IMG/VR virus record: IMGVR_UViG_3300009151_000001
Location: 32,001 to 96,000 of that record
Source of the DNA: a virus
Taxonomy: Duplodnaviria; Caudoviricetes
Length of the DNA: 64,000 nucleotides
Direction: 5' to 3' (one strand)
Part shown: in pieces, positions 36,618 to 60,079 of the stretch
How positions within the stretch are numbered: position 1 is the first letter of the stretch
Layout: the number at the start of each line of letters is the position of its first letter
Notes under the pieces: model-generated
The model's input: the letters and a program-made list of their open reading frames with translations, nothing else
What the model was told of the DNA's origin: nothing
Database searches by the model: none
Program-made: the position numbers and the translations under genes

Positions 36618-36833
36618 TTAATTTTCGTAATCAATAATTCCTTTTCTAACCAGTTCTAAATCATTAGGTATTTCTAATGTTAGAAACATTCCTCTCGGAG
36701 ATTTACATGTGTTATCTCCTGTTGTTTGAGTTTCAAATACATAACGAATTGTTCCATCTTTATCTTTTTTAACTTTACCAAACAACACTATAGAAAATAA
36801 ACCTTCGAGTGTAAGTTTCTCATCAACCATTTT
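36618..36833 (-). CDS. AAA_24/Sak4-like ATPase, exon 2
   Basis: Splicing gives KTIG|KMVDEKLTLEGLFSIVLF and KSPRGMF, conserved motifs of the family. Confidence 0.85.
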   Translation of the reverse strand, partial: KMVDEKLTLEGLFSIVLFGKVKKDKDGTIRYVFETQTTGDNTCKSPRGMFLTLEIPNDLELVRKGIIDYEN

Positions 36834-37210
36834 CTTTTTACACCTTTTATTTCTAAAAGGAATAGACTATATCTCTTAACTTTTGTATTTCCATATCAAA
36901 CCACAAGCCGACTTGGTTCTTTGTCGACATACATTTGAGATTTGACCTCTTCTACAGTTATATACAAAACTATCGGTAAAATACAAAATTTAACTTACCA
37001 TTTCCCCTAAAGTTTTCACTAACTTTAGAGTACTCCCCATCACAGGGATAGTCGTTGAACTTTATTCCTCAACACCACTTGTAGGAATCTTAGCTGCTGA
37101 TTGTCCAATCTTCATCTCTTTTACTATAGTAGAATCATTACTGTTCTACAGAGTGTATGAAGCTCTAAGGATATTCCAGTCAATTAGATAAGTACGGGCA
37201 AAATGTCTTC
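36834..37210 (-). mobile_element. Group I intron (377 nt) in the AAA_24 ATPase gene, with an HEG remnant
   Basis: 5' exon ends in U, intron ends in G; P AATTGACTGGAA, Q AATCAGCAG, R GTTCAACGACTA, S GAGATATAGTC; P10 CATTTT pairs with exon AAAATG. Confidence 0.9.
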
Positions 37211-37678
37211 ACCGATTGTTTTAGCTTTCACCTTACGTTTACCTTCTATATCTACGCTTTCTTCAGCGTGTGTTAAATAAAAAACAGTTAGGTCTTCTCT
37301 CAAATTCTGAGGAAGTCTGGATAATTTAGATAATTTACCACCAATTTGAGTAAATTTTTCATACCCTTTTTCATTTATCTTATCAAAAAACTCAAATGAA
37401 CTTACATACTGAAAATCATCTATAACAATAGTGGTGATTTCAGGACGCTTTTCATTTACATACTTGATACAAGCTTCAATACTTTCAGCATCATGTCTAC
37501 TGATAATATTACCTTTAGGACTATCTTTACTCCAAGCTACATATTTAGACTTCCATCCTTTAAATGGAAGTGGTTTATTAGCTACATTGATTATAAAAGT
37601 CTCAGAAGGATTTAGACTTTCAATACTTGTACTTTTTCCGGAACCTGATTCCGCAATAATTAAAACACCTCTTCCCAT
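37211..37678 (-). CDS. AAA_24/Sak4-like ATPase, exon 1
   Basis: Walker A AESGSGKST, KPLPFKG, Walker B IVIDD. Confidence 0.85.
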
Positions 37679-37683
37679 AATTT

Positions 37684-38295
37684 TTACTTCTGATTTTTGA
37701 TTAAATCGTTTAACCAATGTTTGTTTGATACTGGATTACCCGTGTGTATCGCATAATAATCTCTTATTGTCATATCTGAATAAGGAGCATCATCTACAGA
37801 TGTAGAAGATATAGATATAGGAGCTTTGAAGAAAGTAACCGCGGGATTTTTAGTTTCTTGTTTACTGTTTTTCAAAACACTATCACTACTTATCGCTGCA
37901 GACGATTTAGATATAGCAACTGATGTTGGGTTAACAATTCTTAATTCTTCTAATGGAACATAATACGAACCTCTTTCATTAAGTTCATACTCATCTTCAA
38001 AATGTGGATTATAAGGAACTCTATATACAGTTCTTTCGTTTGTAATAGGTTTATAATCTCTACCAATTACTTCAATATACAATCCTGATGGTCTTCTAAA
38101 CTCACTTGGGAAGATTCCCACTACTGTTTTGTTTAGATATTTACCAGTGCTTGAATAAAAAGCCATCTTCATCTGAAAATCACCTGGAGTAATACCAAGA
38201 TCTTTAATAAGATCAGCATGATACTCTCTAATAGTTTTTAACTGATGAACTTTGTAATCCGCCTCTGTAGCGAAACCTTCAAAAATACCTGACAT
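37684..38295 (-). CDS. Hypothetical protein
   Basis: Operonic ORF; C-terminal MTIRDYYAIH motif. Confidence 0.65.
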   Translation of the reverse strand: MSGIFEGFATEADYKVHQLKTIREYHADLIKDLGITPGDFQMKMAFYSSTGKYLNKTVVGIFPSEFRRPSGLYIEVIGRDYKPITNERTVYRVPYNPHFEDEYELNERGSYYVPLEELRIVNPTSVAISKSSAAISSDSVLKNSKQETKNPAVTFFKAPISISSTSVDDAPYSDMTIRDYYAIHTGNPVSNKHWLNDLIKNQK

Positions 38296-45847: not shown

Positions 45848-46718
45848 TTAGAATGGGTACTCTACTTCAGCTACCTTTATAGCTTCTCCATTAGACATAT
45901 CACTAGCTAATTCACCCATCATTTCGTCAAAAGATTCTGTAGAATCTTTACGAGCTGGATGAGAAGATAAGATAAAATCAATAGCTGTTTCTATCTCGTT
46001 TACTTGTATTTCATCCATTATACCACGAGTAGTATATGCATTAATACCAGCTTCTATCTCAGCGATAGCCAACTCAAGTTGTTCTGTTGTAGTATAAGAT
46101 GCTAACATTTCTACTTTGCTCATAATAGCTTTTACTTCAGGAGACATCAATTTATTTTGAAGTTCTGAACCAGCTGATTGAGAAATCATAATTTGAGCTG
46201 TCTTTACAAGAGCTTTATCTACACTGATGTTCCAAATAAAAGATATAGCTTTAGCTAATCCAGGAACAAAAGTTAAAGTTCTATCAGAACTGTGTTGATA
46301 ACCAACTTCTAAATACTTTTCAAGTTTTTTAGTTGGTACATCTACTGTTGATATTTCTGTTTTATCAGGAACAGAAATCTTTATTTTCTCACGGTAGTTA
46401 CGTGCACCCTTATCAAAATATTTAACTAATTCACCAGCAGATACACGGTTTACTGTCATTTTTAACATAAACCTATCCCAAAAAGGACTACCTACTTCTT
46501 CTTTTGGTATTTCATTACAAGTAGCTACAAATAGTTTCCATTTACAAGGAATCTTGTGTTTACCGTTAAATAAAAACTTCTCGTTCATTACACCCAACAT
46601 TGCGTTACGGATAGCTGAAGAAGCTTTATCCACCTCATTAATCACTACTATTTCCGCGTCAGCAATAGGAGTGTTTAAGGTATACTGATTAGAAGTAAAC
46701 AATTTACCCAGGTCCGGT
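45848..46718 (-). CDS. MoxR/RavA-like AAA+ ATPase, exon 2
   Basis: Walker B VVINEVDKA, ATCNE, FWDRF, SDRT; spliced junction EIKG-I-PDLGKLF. Confidence 0.85.
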
Positions 46719-46780
46719 CATTTTGTTATCCTAAGAACTCTTTATTTCTTAGATCTGTATCTTTTTTTAGATTATAAATG

Positions 46781-47281
46781 TTATCTTTTATTTATATAAT
46801 CAAGAGTTTTTTCTAGAAAACCAGGTTTTTCAATATGACCTAATGATACATTACAACCAATGCAAAGAACTCCTCGCACATGCTGATTTGTATGACAGTG
46901 GTCAATAACTGGTTTTAATTTATCTGTAAACTCTTTTTCACATAGACAACATTTGTTGTTTTGGTCTAATAATAATTTATGATAAGATTCTGGAGTTAAT
47001 CCATATTTTTTAAGATTATAAATAAAACCATAGTTACTTGTAAGCTTTTTAGACTTTTCTGTAGCTCTATGAATTAATTGTTTTTCTCTTAATTGCTTAC
47101 CTTTACGTATATAATAAACAGCTTGATTTTCTTGACGTTTGGTTGTGTTATTTTTTACCCATAAAGCGGTTTTTTCTTTAGCACATTCCTTACAATAAGA
47201 AGTAAGTTCATCTTTTGACTTATTATTCCTATTAAATAAATCTAACTCTTTATTCATTTGACATCTTGCACATTTTTTCAT
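46781..47281 (-). CDS. Endonuclease VII-like HNH homing endonuclease in the intron P9 loop
   Basis: CARC..YCKEC, KYGLT, QNNKCCLC, IDHCH...VRGVLCIGCNVSLG. Confidence 0.9.
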   Translation of the reverse strand: MKKCARCQMNKELDLFNRNNKSKDELTSYCKECAKEKTALWVKNNTTKRQENQAVYYIRKGKQLREKQLIHRATEKSKKLTSNYGFIYNLKKYGLTPESYHKLLLDQNNKCCLCEKEFTDKLKPVIDHCHTNQHVRGVLCIGCNVSLGHIEKPGFLEKTLDYINKR

Positions 47282-47285
47282 AATG

Positions 47286-47316
47286 CAAATATACGAATTA
47301 TTTTAGACTATACAAC
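47286..47316 (-). promoter_or_regulatory. Sigma-A-type promoter for the Endo VII ORF
   Basis: GTTG-N19-TATATTTG, 4 nt before the ATG. Confidence 0.65.
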
Positions 47317-47448
47317 CATACAGTTCAGACTATATCATCAATTATAAAATATTATTATAACTGTTCTGCGCTCGTGGTACTTTACTATCTTCACCATTAC
47401 GTGGTCAGACTCCATGTACTAGTCGTTGAACCTTCTAATTATTTCTAA

Positions 47449-48267
47449 TTAGCTTGGCTGCTGATTATCCATCTCTGGGTTTTCCAGCAATTCACAGAAT
47501 TTAAAGGGGACTTCCGATACCTTTATTTTTAAACATATTTCTACTTCACCACCATTACATAATAATACTACTTGTTTATTTAAGTACTTAACTAAAGAAT
47601 TAGAGTCTGTAAATGTTGTTCCGTCAACTAATGTTATTGTTTTTTTACCATCAATAGCATTAAGTTTACCTTTAAAAGATAAAGCTGATATTTTACTAGA
47701 ATCACTTTTAAGTTTCCATTGTAATCCATATGCTGATACTCTTTCTTTTCTTATACATTTACCTATTTGTTGTGTGCCACAAGAATTGTTTTTACCTAAT
47801 TCTTTTAAAGCTAAACTCATAGAATCAAAAGTTTTTACATAATTACCATTTAAATCATAACACTCTACTGGTTTACTTTCATGATTATTTAATCCGGTTT
47901 TTTGTAAAAGCTTTTGACTATCTGACATCTTTTGTCTTACTTCATCATCAAAATAATATTCATTGTATATGTTAATCAAATTGTACGCAGGTTTTTCTTT
48001 TTCTATAAGATCATATTCAACTTTTCTTACATTTTCTAAAGTTTCATAACTAAGTATTTCTACTTTAAATGAGCTTTCACCATATTTATTATAACTATTT
48101 TGTAATTTAGAATTTCCATGAATATTTTTTCTAAGTTTACTATAATGTTGACAAATTCTATGGTATAAGTTGACTGATGAACCTATATAATAATCACCTG
48201 TTGTAATGTTTAAAATCTTATAAACACCTGATTTTTTGACGTTTTCTGTAGAAATAATGTTTTTCAT
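47449..48267 (-). CDS. GIY-YIG homing endonuclease with NUMOD domains, in the intron P1 loop
   Basis: SGVYKI...YYIGSS.NL..R..QH...L, E...I....P.YN; NUMOD1-like SAYGLQWK. Confidence 0.9.
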   Translation of the reverse strand: MKNIISTENVKKSGVYKILNITTGDYYIGSSVNLYHRICQHYSKLRKNIHGNSKLQNSYNKYGESSFKVEILSYETLENVRKVEYDLIEKEKPAYNLINIYNEYYFDDEVRQKMSDSQKLLQKTGLNNHESKPVECYDLNGNYVKTFDSMSLALKELGKNNSCGTQQIGKCIRKERVSAYGLQWKLKSDSSKISALSFKGKLNAIDGKKTITLVDGTTFTDSNSLVKYLNKQVVLLCNGGEVEICLKIKVSEVPFKFCELLENPEMDNQQPS

Positions 48268-48321
48268 ATTAATAATGTAGTTTGTTTAACCTACACTATA
48301 ATATACAACTTTTTTTAGTTA

Positions 48322-48620
48322 ATCCCCTTAATTTCTGATGACTTAGTCCCTTCGTCAGTTTCTAAGATATAAATCTTGTTCGCAAAGTCTTCAGCGGTCA
48401 TATTACCGTCTTTATTTAACCAAGCTTTAGCATATTCTATTATTGTTTTTGTTTTAGCAACACCAGGATTACCCACTAACAAACAAGGAAGTCCTGTTGA
48501 CTCAGCTAAAGCTAACATCTTAAATACTTCTTCTTTATTAATCAAAGAACTGTCAATAACTCTTACTTCTTTTGCTGTTACTTTACTGGTTGATTTACCT
48601 TTTCCTAAGCTTGTAGCCAT
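48322..48620 (-). CDS. MoxR/RavA-like AAA+ ATPase, exon 1 (the frame stays open 90 codons upstream to the ATG at 48890)
   Basis: LINKEEV, Walker A LLVGNPGVAKT. Confidence 0.8.
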
Positions 48621-48891
48621 TTTTCTTAAATTTTTTTGTTTAATAATTTTTTCAACATTGAGATTTCTCTCCACTAATTTAAATGATTCTTCTCTAATTA
48701 CACCACTTGTAGCTCTATGATTTTTTTCTATATCTACGTATAATTTGTCTTGATCTACTAAAGTGTAATTATATATTGGGTGGACTTGAAATACATCTTT
48801 AATAACAAAAAACTTTCCAACTAAACAAGGATTACACCCCCACCCATCTTCTACAACTTCTACTAAATCACCTGGTTTAAACTTATTCATA

Positions 48892-49266
48892 TTATAAGTT
48901 AGCAAATGCATCAGCTCCAGATATCTCTTCTTCTGATACAGAAACAACTGGTTCAGGAACCGTTATTCTACCTATTCCACTAAAACCTGTAAAAGCAGCC
49001 ATTATTGGTTTTGTTTCTTCTTCTTGTACAGGAACTGGTTCTACTACTTTAGTGTCATCCACTATTACAAAAATCTTATTAATTGTTTGAAGATTTACTA
49101 AGGCTGAATGTTTTTTGATTGTCATAATTTGACTATCCAAGGCTTCATACTTTTCTTGAATTGAGCCATAACCAATGTCATCTCTCTTTAACCAAGTTAA
49201 ACCACTACCAAGATCTGCTTGGATACTACTTACTGTTAGCTGTACTTTCGGCAACTGTTTGTTCAT
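48892..49266 (-). CDS. Hypothetical protein
   Basis: Operonic ORF. Confidence 0.6.
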   Translation of the reverse strand: MNKQLPKVQLTVSSIQADLGSGLTWLKRDDIGYGSIQEKYEALDSQIMTIKKHSALVNLQTINKIFVIVDDTKVVEPVPVQEEETKPIMAAFTGFSGIGRITVPEPVVSVSEEEISGADAFANL

Positions 49267-52192: not shown

Positions 52193-54367
52193 TTAGTTAA
52201 ACCATTTTTGTGTGTATTTACCACAAGGACAAACCCAACCATCAGTTGTGGCTATAAGTACACCTTCGTTTTCGTTAGTGTATTCTACAGTTTCTCCTTC
52301 ACTACGTTTTAACGTGGCCGCGTTTCTAAAACATTCTGATATACCATCTCCACAACATGTATAGGGATGAAATCTACTATCGTTTTGACGTTCGTTAAGC
52401 TCTTTTACTACAATATCTGTAAAGGATGTATTCATAACTTATTTTTTAATGATAATGACCACATGGTCCTTTTATTTTAAATACTTTACCGTATTTTTTA
52501 TCTAAATATACTTTTAAATTAGGTAAAGGATCTACCAAATAACCAACGCTCTAGGAGTGATTCTATTTGTGATAGTGTTTCTTGTTGTCCCATAATTTCC
52601 ATCTATTTTTAATTAACTTCCTTTGTTTTCTGTTAAGATGAATTTGTTTTAAATCTGTACGGTAAATTCTATCGTGTACATCGTAGTACCATATTTGACC
52701 ATTTATAACTCGTTTGAGCCGTTGTATAAGAAAAAAACATTTTACATCACTATAACTCCACGTTCTTATTTTTCCCATTTTACTTCAATTTCTTTACCCG
52801 TAAACAATCTTATTAACTGTTGTAGTTGGTGTAGGTAGGTAATAGTACAACGTTCATCATAAAAAAATCCATTATCTCTCTCCCACAAAACTATATCATC
52901 GGTAATATAATATCCACCAGTACCGACTTTTACTACTCCCTCTATCCTCTCCATTATTTCAGGAGTTAGTTTGATAGGTTTAATATTAGCAAATGCAGGA
53001 TTAACATCTAAGGTAAGTAGTGTAGTTGGACTAACTTTAAATTCAACATCATTTCTTAATACCCAATCCCCCGCCATTAATTTTAATTCGTTACTTTTCA
53101 TTATCTTATAATTTAATTGTGATAGGTTGTGTGAGATTTCTTTTTTTTCTTTCTTCAAAATCACTATCATTAAAACCACACCCATATCCATAACCAAAAG
53201 CGTCATTTAATATAGGCTCTATTGAGAATAGTTGGGATTCTACGGTTTCTAAAATACTTAATTGATTTTTACATGATTCTATATGTGGTGAAGGTAGATT
53301 ACTATTTATGACTATATTCAATAGCCTTTTTTTCTCGCGTAACCATTCCCTATCAATGCACCCTATCTGTGAGGGTAGTAGTTGTTTAGTTGTGTTGCTC
53401 ATTGTTTTTAAATTTTAAATGTTTTTTATTCGCTGATTTTTGACTAGAAGCGATGCAAGAAAAACCATCATCGTAATAATATTTCTTGCAGCCATTAGGA
53501 ATAGGAGGTGTAGGTAATTCTCCTGTAACATTATTTACGTTTACACGAGGATTAGAATCACCATCAAGCCTATTTACATCATTTTCAAACATTCCAGCTA
53601 CAGCTAAAAGTGCAGCTAAATTTTTTATACTATTCATTTTGCTCATAATTGTCCGTTTTAAAGTATTTGTCAATATCTGACTTTGTTAATCTTTTAAAAG
53701 CTAAATCCATTTGTTTTTTCATCAACCTAAGTCTTACCTTAGCCTTCCTATTTGGATGCTTAAATGCAGCATTATTCTTCAATCTAGCATTAGTGTAGCG
53801 TAAGAATGTATCTACTAACATAATTCTTTTTGCATATTGCGTAAGTTTTATTTAGTGAAAGATTTTGTGATTCAAGTAAAGAATTAAAAGATTCTAAAGC
53901 AGTAGGATAAGTGTTCCAATAATATTCATAATCTTCATACCCACAACCCATCATAAGTACTTTATAAACTATCCCCTTCGCTATTTCCTCCGTTATTGTA
54001 TCTGTTGTACATAGAAAATCGTAATTTCCTTGAATAATATCACTCCAATTTGCAACTTCATTAATTGAATAAAATAATGAACAAGTATTATCTGGATAGT
54101 TTTCTATAAGAAAATTAGCTCCATCTTTGGATACTTCCACAAATATGTAAGTACCATTATTAGTTGTTACTGTTGTCATTAATCCGTAAATTTTGAGATT
54201 AATAATTCTTTTGAAAGCTCTCTTTGTTTCTCGTATTCTTTAGATTCTAAATACCCTAAATCCTCATTTCTTTCTAATTCTACATTAGCAACATGGTAAT
54301 AGGCGGTTAAAGCACTTTGTATTAAATACCATTCACTACTATGTTTTTTTATTTTTACTGTTGTCAT
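52193..54367 (-). other. Cluster of small, overlapping hypothetical ORFs (accessory region)
   Basis: About eight co-oriented 60-130 aa ORFs with overlapping start/stop codons. Confidence 0.6.
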
Positions 54368-59116: not shown

Positions 59117-59164
59117 GGTAACAAAACAAAATCTGTGTGGAGGTAACCAGATTTTGTGTGGAGG

Positions 59165-59609
59165 TGGAGGTGAGGGGATTTGAACCCCTGTGTTAAGAAG
59201 AACGCCATAATACCAACGTCTCACATGTTTAGCTACTCTGTTTCTCAGAAGCAGGAGATTAATCTGTGTTTTCACTGATTAGTAAAGGGCTGTACTGATT
59301 TAGGGTACAACATCCACCATCCTGATTTTTTAGCGTTGTACAGATAAACAACGGTAGTACTTTTAAAAGGTGTGTACTACTACCTTGAGTTTGTGACTTA
59401 CTGTTCCACCCAAGTCACCAGAGGAAGAGTTACGCTGCTACAGCAACACGAGCGTTAGCGAACGCCATGTTAATGATTTTTGCACCGATAGCTTGATGAT
59501 CAACTGTGTTGTCATTTATTGTTTTGTGTAACGATTAAAGAGAATTAACACCATATCTCTACATGTGATACTATCCATTACATCTCAGTCGAATGCCAGT
59601 AACACCCCC
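59165..59609 (-). ncRNA. ssrA: tmRNA; tag (A)DNTVDHQAIGAKIINMAFANARVAVAA at 59513-59430
   Basis: 5' GGGGGTGTTACTGGCATTCGAC; acceptor GGGGGTG/CACCTCC with G3.U70 and discriminator A; T-arm GGGGTTCAAATCCCC; ATAAAT before the resume codon; tag ends AA*. Confidence 0.93.
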
Positions 59610-60007: not shown

Positions 60008-60079
60008 TTTGGGAGACAGGACTCGAACCTGTGACCTACCTTAATTAAAAGATCGCATCTACCCCTGAGCTACTCCCAA
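60008..60079 (-). tRNA. Degenerate tRNA, anticodon unresolved
   Basis: TTGGGAG/CTCCCAA, TAGCTCAG, ACAGG-TTCGAGT-CCTGT; 6-nt anticodon loop and a bulged D-stem. Confidence 0.6.

Follow-up and report, generated by a model that had tools for sequence, protein, structure and literature searches.

A MoxR-like ATPase gene of an uncultivated freshwater phage (genome of 124.6 kb) is very probably interrupted by one group I intron of the IA type that lacks the paired region P2 and in which a second, unrelated nuclease gene of the HNH type has been inserted into the P9 loop, in addition to the GIY-YIG endonuclease gene that fills the P1 loop. The locus lies in a 64,000-nucleotide (nt) stretch of DNA, here called the window, that corresponds to bases 32001–96000 of the 124,635-bp IMG/VR virus record IMGVR_UViG_3300009151_000001, a complete record with direct terminal repeats. 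Positions given below are those of the window, and the minus strand carries every gene at the intron locus as well as all intron features described. The intron comprises 1,603 nt (46719..48321); one ribozyme was found, two complete open reading frames (ORFs) occupy different peripheral loops, and related phages have a natural counterpart with one ORF at the same site. Judged from its sequence, this is a genuine single intron, probably a functional one, whose two endonuclease genes are both intact.

The extent of the intron was established from intron-less alleles, among them that of a near-isogenic phage, and from the P1 and P10 pairings of the ribozyme. In the window the host gene appears as two separate ORFs with Pfam bpMoxR/AAA_5 matches, one (48947..48315) with the Walker A and the other (46702..45848) with the Walker B motif. 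Exon 1 (48322..48890; ORF list, partial Pfam bpMoxR match and tblastn to 80 intron-less loci) presumably starts at the ATG at 48890, from where homologues begin to align, and contains the Walker A motif GNPGVAKT; exon 2 (45848..46718) contains the Walker B motif VVINEVDKA. A search of viral contigs with the exon-2 protein gave 103 related stretches, the best 80 of which served as the intron-less comparison set. The site was uninterrupted in all 80 phage loci (59 distinct junction sequences), where the genes read through as ...SEIKG(I/M/V)PDL..., the intron being situated in the conserved SEIKG(I/M)PDL codons. As the exon-1 match stops at residue 209, 15 nt short of the exon-2 match, in each of the 80 loci, the insertion point is fixed between 48322 and 46718. 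The 5′ splice site falls directly after U48322, the base of the U.G pair of P1, and G46719 is the final intron base. The initial annotation had placed the junction at 48322|46718 and the intron at 48321..46719, and had named an internal mini-exon as a finding that would speak against a single intron; the junction and extent stand, and no mini-exon is present, since the exons abut exactly as they do in the intron-less alleles.

The closest of these alleles belongs to the intron-less phage L003, which is 98.1% identical to the window at the nucleotide level over 4.0 kb upstream of the intron and 95.2% over 6.9 kb downstream; at the protein level exon 2 is 100% and exon 1 95% identical. Over 158 bases of joined exons (79 per side), L003 differs from the window at only seven positions (-6, -3, +4, +7, +8, +10 and +19), all of them synonymous. 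The L003 bases would put two mismatches in P1 and one in P10, and three of the seven differences in the window restore these pairs. The exon-1 end AAGGGGAU is present in all three intron-bearing alleles, and a GGG glycine codon at the guide-matching position was found in none of the 80 intron-less ones. Furthermore, in a metagenome contig of 54,986 nt from run X6, 46708 is connected to 48328 via 16 nt of the L003 type, so a second data set contains a near-identical phage that lacks the intron. Elsewhere in the alignment with L003, about 205 nt of the window (52326-52531) have no counterpart in that phage, as judged from a blastn alignment break.

The intron contains a single match to the group I intron family RF00028 of Rfam (47573-47306; 77.2 bits against a gathering score of 50, E 2.5e-19), and a scan of 46400-48600 against all of Rfam gave no second group I core at E<=10, in line with the single core proposed from the sequence. 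The narrow scan matters here: the whole-window Rfam scan at the gathering threshold missed this intron because of filters, and a 37.5-kb multi-locus scan missed known copies in the contigs L083, L169 and L092 that narrow scans and nhmmer recovered, so blanks from wide Rfam scans are weak evidence. The absence of a second core bears on the idea of a twintron, or of two neighbouring introns, with either a further ribozyme or a short exon inside the element, which might be suggested by the element's length of 1.6 kb, by its two ORFs and by the recurrence of the P7 3′ motif UAUAGUCU (47335-47328) at 47312-47305. That idea merits hardly any credence: besides the lack of a further RF00028 match and the exons abutting as in the 80 intron-less alleles, the recurring stretch matches P9 loop sequence over a greater length than it matches P7, and the 536 nt missing from the same-site introns of L083 and L169 correspond to the HNH ORF and its 35-nt leader and to nothing else.

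The single core (47328..47499) is supported by the Rfam alignment, by a minimum free energy fold and by covariation over nine introns. Alignment and fold place P3 at 47499-47493/47370-47364, P4 at 47489-47484/47464-47459, P5 at 47478-47469, P6/P6a at 47458-47430, P7 at 47424-47420/47332-47328 and P8 at 47361-47341, with a 49-nt P7.1/P7.2-like insert at 47419-47371. P2 is absent, the guide sequence being followed by UAAA and then P3. The intron is read as a P2-less, IA-type group I intron for which splicing is predicted. Assignment to subgroup IA2, which is typical of phage introns and has P7.1/P7.2 as well as P2, would be tentative: taken by itself, the insert at the P7.1/P7.2 position has a weak fold (-8.4 kcal/mol), and P2 is lacking. 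In the internal guide region (47504..47517), the guide GUCCCCUU (47511-47504) pairs with the exon-1 end AAGGGGAU (48329-48322) to form a P1 of seven Watson-Crick pairs plus the terminal U48322.G47511, with a duplex energy of -13.7 kcal/mol. The adjoining UCGG (47517-47514) forms a P10 of four pairs with CCGG at exon-2 positions +2 to +5 (46717-46714), and a compensatory change in L083 supports the region. The 'P1' and 'P2' aligned by Rfam at 47570-47533 were rejected, being hairpins inside the coding region instead. At the 3′ side, P9 is formed by CUGUAU (47318..47323) and AUACAG (46755..46760), with a compensatory difference in L083 (CUGCAU/AUGCAG); it is followed by a 3′-terminal hairpin (P9.x; 46731..46752), CUAAGAA-AUAAAGAG-UUCUUAG, with a 7-bp helix and an 8-nt loop, and by GAUAACAAAAUG, after which comes the 3′ splice site.

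Covariation was assessed over nine introns found by nhmmer with the window core (window, L083, L092, L055, L080, L072, L137a, L137b and L004), the P9 pairs being counted by script and the core pairs scored on a shorter alignment. In P3 to P8, 89.5% of the pair cells are standard, compared with 33-44% when the partners are slid by 1-3 columns; 21 of 38 core pairs show changes on both sides, and the observed covariation score was reached in none of 500 shuffles. P7 is invariant (5/5 pairs). P9 and the 3′-terminal hairpin are perfect Watson-Crick helices in all nine introns, each with seven different sequences. The P9 loop has 9-18 nt in the eight other introns, which span seven different insertion sites, and 557 nt in the window only. 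In the six introns for which the 5′ junction could be placed (four insertion sites), the guide sequence lies directly 5′ of P3 and pairs with the exon by six to seven Watson-Crick pairs plus U.G, and a GIY-YIG ORF fills the P1 loop. In the standard form of this subfamily, therefore, the P1 loop houses a GIY-YIG gene, the P9 hairpin is short and the 3′-terminal hairpin is conserved. Its sites mapped to the nucleotide number at least four, including two in MoxR, one in helicase-like P-loop codons and others in additional genes.

The second MoxR position, which lies in the Walker A codons roughly 45 codons further upstream, is occupied in 5 of the 80 loci by introns of the same subfamily, in L004, L005 and L072 after ...GGGCGT/...GGGGT and in L055 and L059 after ...CCAGGT; the GIY-YIG gene of these introns is 28-32% identical and likewise in the P1 loop, and the L004 core scores 64.8 bits. 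The helicase-like P-loop codons (GGRPGK|...SGKTS) hold a sister intron in L092 (1-1260), whose core is 88% identical to that of the window. P3 and P6a of L092 match those of the window exactly, and those of L083 differ, a pattern suggesting that introns at different sites have exchanged segments in a mosaic fashion. Additional cores of this subfamily were observed in neighbouring genes of L083 (6201-6484; 76.1 bits), L137 (1347-1535 and 2072-2237, about 700 nt apart) and L080 (3960-4129); these related phages are intron-rich.

The first endonuclease gene (47449..48267) encodes an I-TevI-like GIY-YIG protein of 272 amino acids with a NUMOD1 domain. As predicted from the sequence, its ORF (48267-47449) lies in a P1 loop of approximately 800 nt, measured here as 810 nt; the same position is occupied in five other introns of the subfamily. 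Pfam matches were found to PF01541 (31.1 bits, cut-off 22.6) and NUMOD1 (24.4 bits, cut-off 22.8), and the protein aligns with the catalytic domain of I-TevI (1mk0/1ln0; E 2.1e-07 for 1mk0) over I-TevI residues 2-62, including the arginine that is alanine in the mutant 1ln0. Y16, Y27, G29, R37, E84 and N96 are invariant in eight GIY-YIG homologues, and E84 and N96 are residues that we take to be the equivalents of E75 and N90 of I-TevI. The dN/dS ratio (nonsynonymous to synonymous substitution) against L083 is 0.19 over 272 codons, a value indicative of purifying selection. The 3′ end of the gene crosses the guide sequence, the 5′ strand of P3, P4 (the P and Q elements) and P5, with the stop codon in P6. 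This read-through of the guide sequence and the P/Q elements had been noticed in the initial annotation, with the protein end EVPFKFCELLENPEMDNQQPS, and is borne out here. Where the gene overlaps the ribozyme, in its last 22 codons, there is no synonymous change against L083, and ORFs that overlap group I core sequences are a known arrangement according to the published description (PMC3984707). The corresponding ORF of L092 is 32% identical yet has the same ending ...ENPEMDNQQPS, because the same P4-P6 sequence is read.

The second endonuclease gene (46781..47281) encodes a protein of 166 amino acids that was assigned to the Endonuclease-VII-type HNH nucleases from Pfam (Endonuclease_7, PF02945; 63.4 bits, cut-off 23.6), alignments to structure templates and a family alignment. 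The protein has an N-terminal CxxC...CxxC module, and its residues C111, C114, D127, H128, H130, C140, C143 and N144 align with T4 endonuclease VII and Hpy99I (CxxC...DH.H...CxxCN). All 34 invariant columns of the 10-member family alignment, including the cysteine, aspartate, histidine and asparagine residues, are kept. The view that both ORFs are intact thus agrees with the low dN/dS of the GIY-YIG gene and with the complete set of invariant HNH columns. No paralogue of either gene was found elsewhere in the phage genome.

The HNH gene stretches the P9 loop to 557 nt (47317-46761), and its location in the P9 loop closed by CTGTAT/ATACAG, already recognized from the sequence, is confirmed by the helix CUGUAU (47323-47318)/AUACAG (46760-46755) and by the relatives of the intron. 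Searches with the GIY-YIG protein in viral and metagenome contigs revealed a one-gene intron at the same site in two contigs, L083 (identical to L168 and L170) and L169. Their MoxR protein is 49-67% and their GIY-YIG protein 86% identical to that of the window. At the DNA level they are 85% identical over 48570-47317 and 76-77% identical over 46780-46417, and 47316-46781 is skipped, with breakpoints at 47317|47316 and 46781|46780. The segment absent from the one-gene copies (46781..47316, approximately 536-540 nt by blastn breakpoints) consists of the HNH ORF and its 35-nt leader, and no HNH match was found in the L083 or L169 locus. The one-gene intron ends in CUGCAU-GUAUAAUCUUAUAAAAAG-AUGCAG, CUAAGAG-AUAAAGAA-CUCUUAG and GAUAACAAAAAUG|GCCCGA, with a P9 loop of 18 nt, and shows compensatory differences from the window in P9, in the 3′-terminal hairpin and in P10 (UCGGG/CCCGA in L083, UCGG/CCGG in the window).

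Since the P9 loop measures 9-18 nt in all eight other introns of the subfamily, the HNH gene is the later arrival, a derived insertion of about 540 nt. The opposite order, with the HNH gene present first in this intron lineage and precisely deleted in L083 and L169, is very unlikely. The two contigs are the only independent one-gene copies and their ribozymes are identical to each other, so that they could represent a single loss; however, a loss would have to recreate the usual P9 loop, which reads GUAUAAUCUUAUAAAAAG in L083, AUAAUCUAAUUAAAA in L092 at another site and UAUAAUCUAAAAAAAG in the window 3′ of the insert, and the short loops of the other eight introns, at seven insertion sites, likewise argue against it. 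The successive invasion proposed at the outset is therefore the reading that these copies favour, and the survey of same-site loci with none, one or two ORFs that had been suggested gave 80 empty loci, two one-gene contigs and the two-gene intron of the window. Further same-site introns were not recovered: a 37-nt core pattern found only the contig of L083, and a 16-nt guide-sequence pattern found 15 loci, 14 of them without a core, MoxR, GIY-YIG or HNH match.

A short motif recurs in and around the insert. The P9 loop motif UUAUAAUCUAAAAAA (46777-46763) recurs with one mismatch at 47021-47007, inside the HNH coding region, as the sole copy of such quality in 64 kb, and with three mismatches at 47313-47299, at the 5′ edge of the insert. 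At up to three mismatches, 42 occurrences were counted across the window against 38.8 expected, which is the chance frequency; the recurrence could stem from microhomology that served the insertion, or simply be due to chance, the DNA being AT-rich. Import of the P7 piece of another intron with the HNH cassette was considered and rejected, as the repeat fits the P9 loop motif better and that motif occurs at chance frequency.

Several points weigh against the insertion reading or limit it. No RNA run containing the locus was found, and splicing is deduced from the predicted structure. The 557-nt loop forces P9 to form over a long range, and a local hairpin, CUGUAU-GGUU-GUAUAG (47323-47308; four Watson-Crick and two G.U pairs, -1.9 kcal/mol), competes with it; this hairpin combines the P9 5′ strand with the first bases of the insert, GGUUGUAUAG, is taken as P9 by the Rfam model, and may act as a stand-in for the long-range P9 or as its competitor, so that its effect on folding could be favourable or adverse. 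A depth-2 contig of run X3 that ceases to match at exactly 47317 is a weak hint of a near-identical one-gene copy; the missing cover of the HNH ORF in runs X3-X6, all of them DNA contigs, was given no weight. Two-gene introns may be frequent, or other places may be the main location of the HNH gene: its 90% cluster has 24 member sequences, the 15 members listed occur on approximately 60 contigs, and protein clusters contain further relatives that are 73%, 64% and 52-56% identical, whereas none of the close relatives (the 24-member cluster, P0121-P0127) was found in the viral or genome contigs scanned. Finally, the core read as protein appears to be a dispensable by-product and no designed feature, since the GIY-YIG clusters P0166-P0169 (83-84% identical) end in KVSGSPL, with the stop codon immediately behind the guide sequence. 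A difference of 1 nt in the P10 partner (UCGGG in L083 DNA, UCGG in the window) would account for these ends, and the P10 pairing and the end of the GIY-YIG ORF would in that case be coupled via a single base.

The long loop and the competing hairpin also raise the question of whether the HNH insertion has damaged P9 to the extent that the two-gene copy splices poorly and the MoxR gene is impaired or split, the more so as the two-gene form was seen, among the collections searched, only in the window's own genome. Such damage is improbable, given that both exons are open, with the protein identity to L003 noted above, that P1, P10, P9 and the terminal hairpin are all intact, and that the genome is complete with terminal repeats; moreover, ORFs of such size are described as ordinary in the peripheral loops of group I introns (PMC3984707).

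In a functional intron with a gene inserted later, the following course of events would be expected. After transcription the ribozyme would fold around its two long loops, and the guide sequence would pair with AAGGGGAU in P1 and with CCGG in P10 and join 48322 to 46718. The GIY-YIG enzyme would cut intron-less MoxR alleles, and repair would copy in the whole element. Before its arrival the HNH gene was most likely a free-standing homing gene, whose enzyme cut the P9 loop and so let the gene invade it; it would spread by turning one-gene introns into two-gene ones or by travelling along with the intron. What the sequences show is the anatomy, the junction, the covariation, the series with none, one or two genes and the intactness of both ORFs, whereas splicing, the cleavage activity of either enzyme and the target of the HNH enzyme are predictions. 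It is possible, and we put it forward tentatively, that the HNH nuclease is a parasite of a parasite, which recognizes the short P9 loop DNA of the GIY-YIG intron and copies itself in. Another possibility is that a wider range of competitor MoxR alleles comes within reach in co-infection because the phage has two nucleases that differ in cutting chemistry. Cooperation between the enzymes, or a part in the competition among phages, both raised in the initial annotation, is speculative.

As to the origin of the HNH gene, the HNH protein query gave three weak loci in the viral contigs and three distant matches in the genome contigs, and a 10-sequence HNH alignment gave 15 distant loci in the viral contigs at up to 46% identity, seven of the eight scanned having no intron hit. 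Relatives in phage records are at most 34% identical and mostly annotated as endonuclease VII or HNH endonuclease; of the five related phage records searched, two (G002 and G003) contain such genes, 30-33% identical, and neither had an intron match within +/-1.5 kb. These observations fit the published invasion model and the biorfic introns of Podospora. The same annotations, mostly of free-standing genes, would also agree with an HNH enzyme that mobilizes neither the intron nor itself, the intron being a safe harbour for a nuclease that acts elsewhere (for example by nicking a competitor gene) or the gene being a decaying passenger, and an intron-encoded HNH enzyme of phage PhiPA3 is reported to disable a competitor gene of PhiKZ (PMC11878797). 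This explanation is rather unlikely: the invasion model, as described, predicts just such a clean insertion into a mobile intron's loop (PMC3984707), and decay is opposed by the intact HNH ORF and its 24 close cluster members. A role in competition is nevertheless compatible with the observations.

Different promoter motifs, late-type and sigma-A, had been noted upstream of the two ORFs, a claim that was not upheld, as sigma-70-like sites occur at chance level (14 versus 13.4 +/- 4.1 in shuffles). A match to TAnnTTTG, TATATTTG (47286..47293), lies 4 nt before the ATG of the HNH gene, and such matches were found 0-60 nt upstream of ORFs of at least 90 amino acids seven times against 2.3 expected. 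TAnnTTTG is a motif that we take to be the Bacteroidota -7 consensus, and the match is a weak hint of a possible -7 promoter box of the HNH gene.

Among known systems, the td intron of phage T4 with I-TevI is similar in that a phage IA-type intron resides in a conserved enzyme gene and its enzyme is the one to whose catalytic domain structures (1mk0/1ln0) the GIY-YIG protein aligns. The ORF of the td intron is located in P6. In the window, unlike in the T-even introns, the GIY-YIG gene lies in the P1 loop of a P2-less intron and the host gene encodes a MoxR-like ATPase; furthermore, the T-even td and nrdB/nrdD introns (I-TevI, I-TevIII and I-TevII) carry one endonuclease gene each, whereas the window intron has two, from different families. 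I-TevIII is described as an example of an HNH homing enzyme encoded in a phage intron (PMC1865063). In the text available for a survey of Bastillevirinae phage introns, only single loop-encoded proteins are mentioned (PMC11878797), and no phage group I intron with two endonuclease genes was found in searches of the full-text literature, to which supplementary intron lists could hold exceptions.

Two-gene introns are known from fungal mitochondria, and the concept is not new. The Podospora anserina mitochondrial introns nad1-i4 and cox1-i7 are described as mono- or biorfic, the optional ORF moving together with a short flanking fragment (PMC4964425), and the window intron resembles them in that one intron occurs naturally with one or two ORFs. 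Introns with two ORFs (LAGLIDADG and/or GIY-YIG) are reported from Chrysoporthe and Cryphonectria, where 8, 2 and 4 introns are listed (PMC4894602), and a database of 2025 speaks of 'some occurrences' of multiple endonuclease genes per intron and classes more than 50% of viral introns as IA2 (PMC11835236). The fungal two-ORF introns are eukaryotic, organellar and mostly of the LAGLIDADG type, whereas the window intron belongs to a bacteriophage and combines a GIY-YIG with an Endonuclease-VII-type HNH gene; unlike in the fungal cases, the zero-gene and one-gene states are visible in related phages with exact breakpoints. In the invasion model, or collaborative (trans) homing, as outlined in the literature, a free-standing enzyme cuts an intron that contains its site and the gene is copied in during repair (PMC3984707). 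The intron of the window resembles the outcome of this process and those of L083 and L169 its substrate, with the difference that the recipient in the model has no ORF, whereas here the recipient already had an endonuclease gene that is predicted to be working. A further composite is the IStron, described as a group I intron whose 3′ end carries an IS200/IS605-type element (PMC4227781); like the window intron, it joins a group I ribozyme with a second mobile cassette 3′ of the core, but its passenger, as far as described, is a transposon with transposase genes in bacterial chromosomes instead of a second homing endonuclease in a phage.

Other features of the window include a second group I intron without an ORF (36843-37260, minus strand; RF00028 at 45.3 bits, gathering score 50, E 6.8e-10), which splits an ATPase gene between ...KAKTIG (ORF 37717..37184) and KLTLEGLF... 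(ORF 36830..36618); the homologue of this gene in L092 (2662..3345) is uninterrupted. A full-length phage-encoded transfer-messenger RNA gene (59162-59609, minus strand; 75.9 bits) and a tRNA gene (60008-60079, minus strand) were also detected.

The window thus provides a phage counterpart of the fungal two-gene introns with the pre-insertion states preserved. The entry of endonuclease genes into introns has usually been reconstructed from end products, and here three states are preserved in related phages, so that the locus offers a test system for the invasion model and for the tolerance of a ribozyme to a 557-nt P9 loop. It also defines, in uncultivated aquatic phages, a compact intron subfamily without P2, with a GIY-YIG gene in the P1 loop and with a conserved 3′ hairpin. 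If the HNH nuclease does parasitize the GIY-YIG intron, the mobile intron would itself be a homing site, with three nested states in the phage population, and the one-gene and two-gene introns would form a natural before-and-after pair for the model of endonuclease genes colonizing introns.

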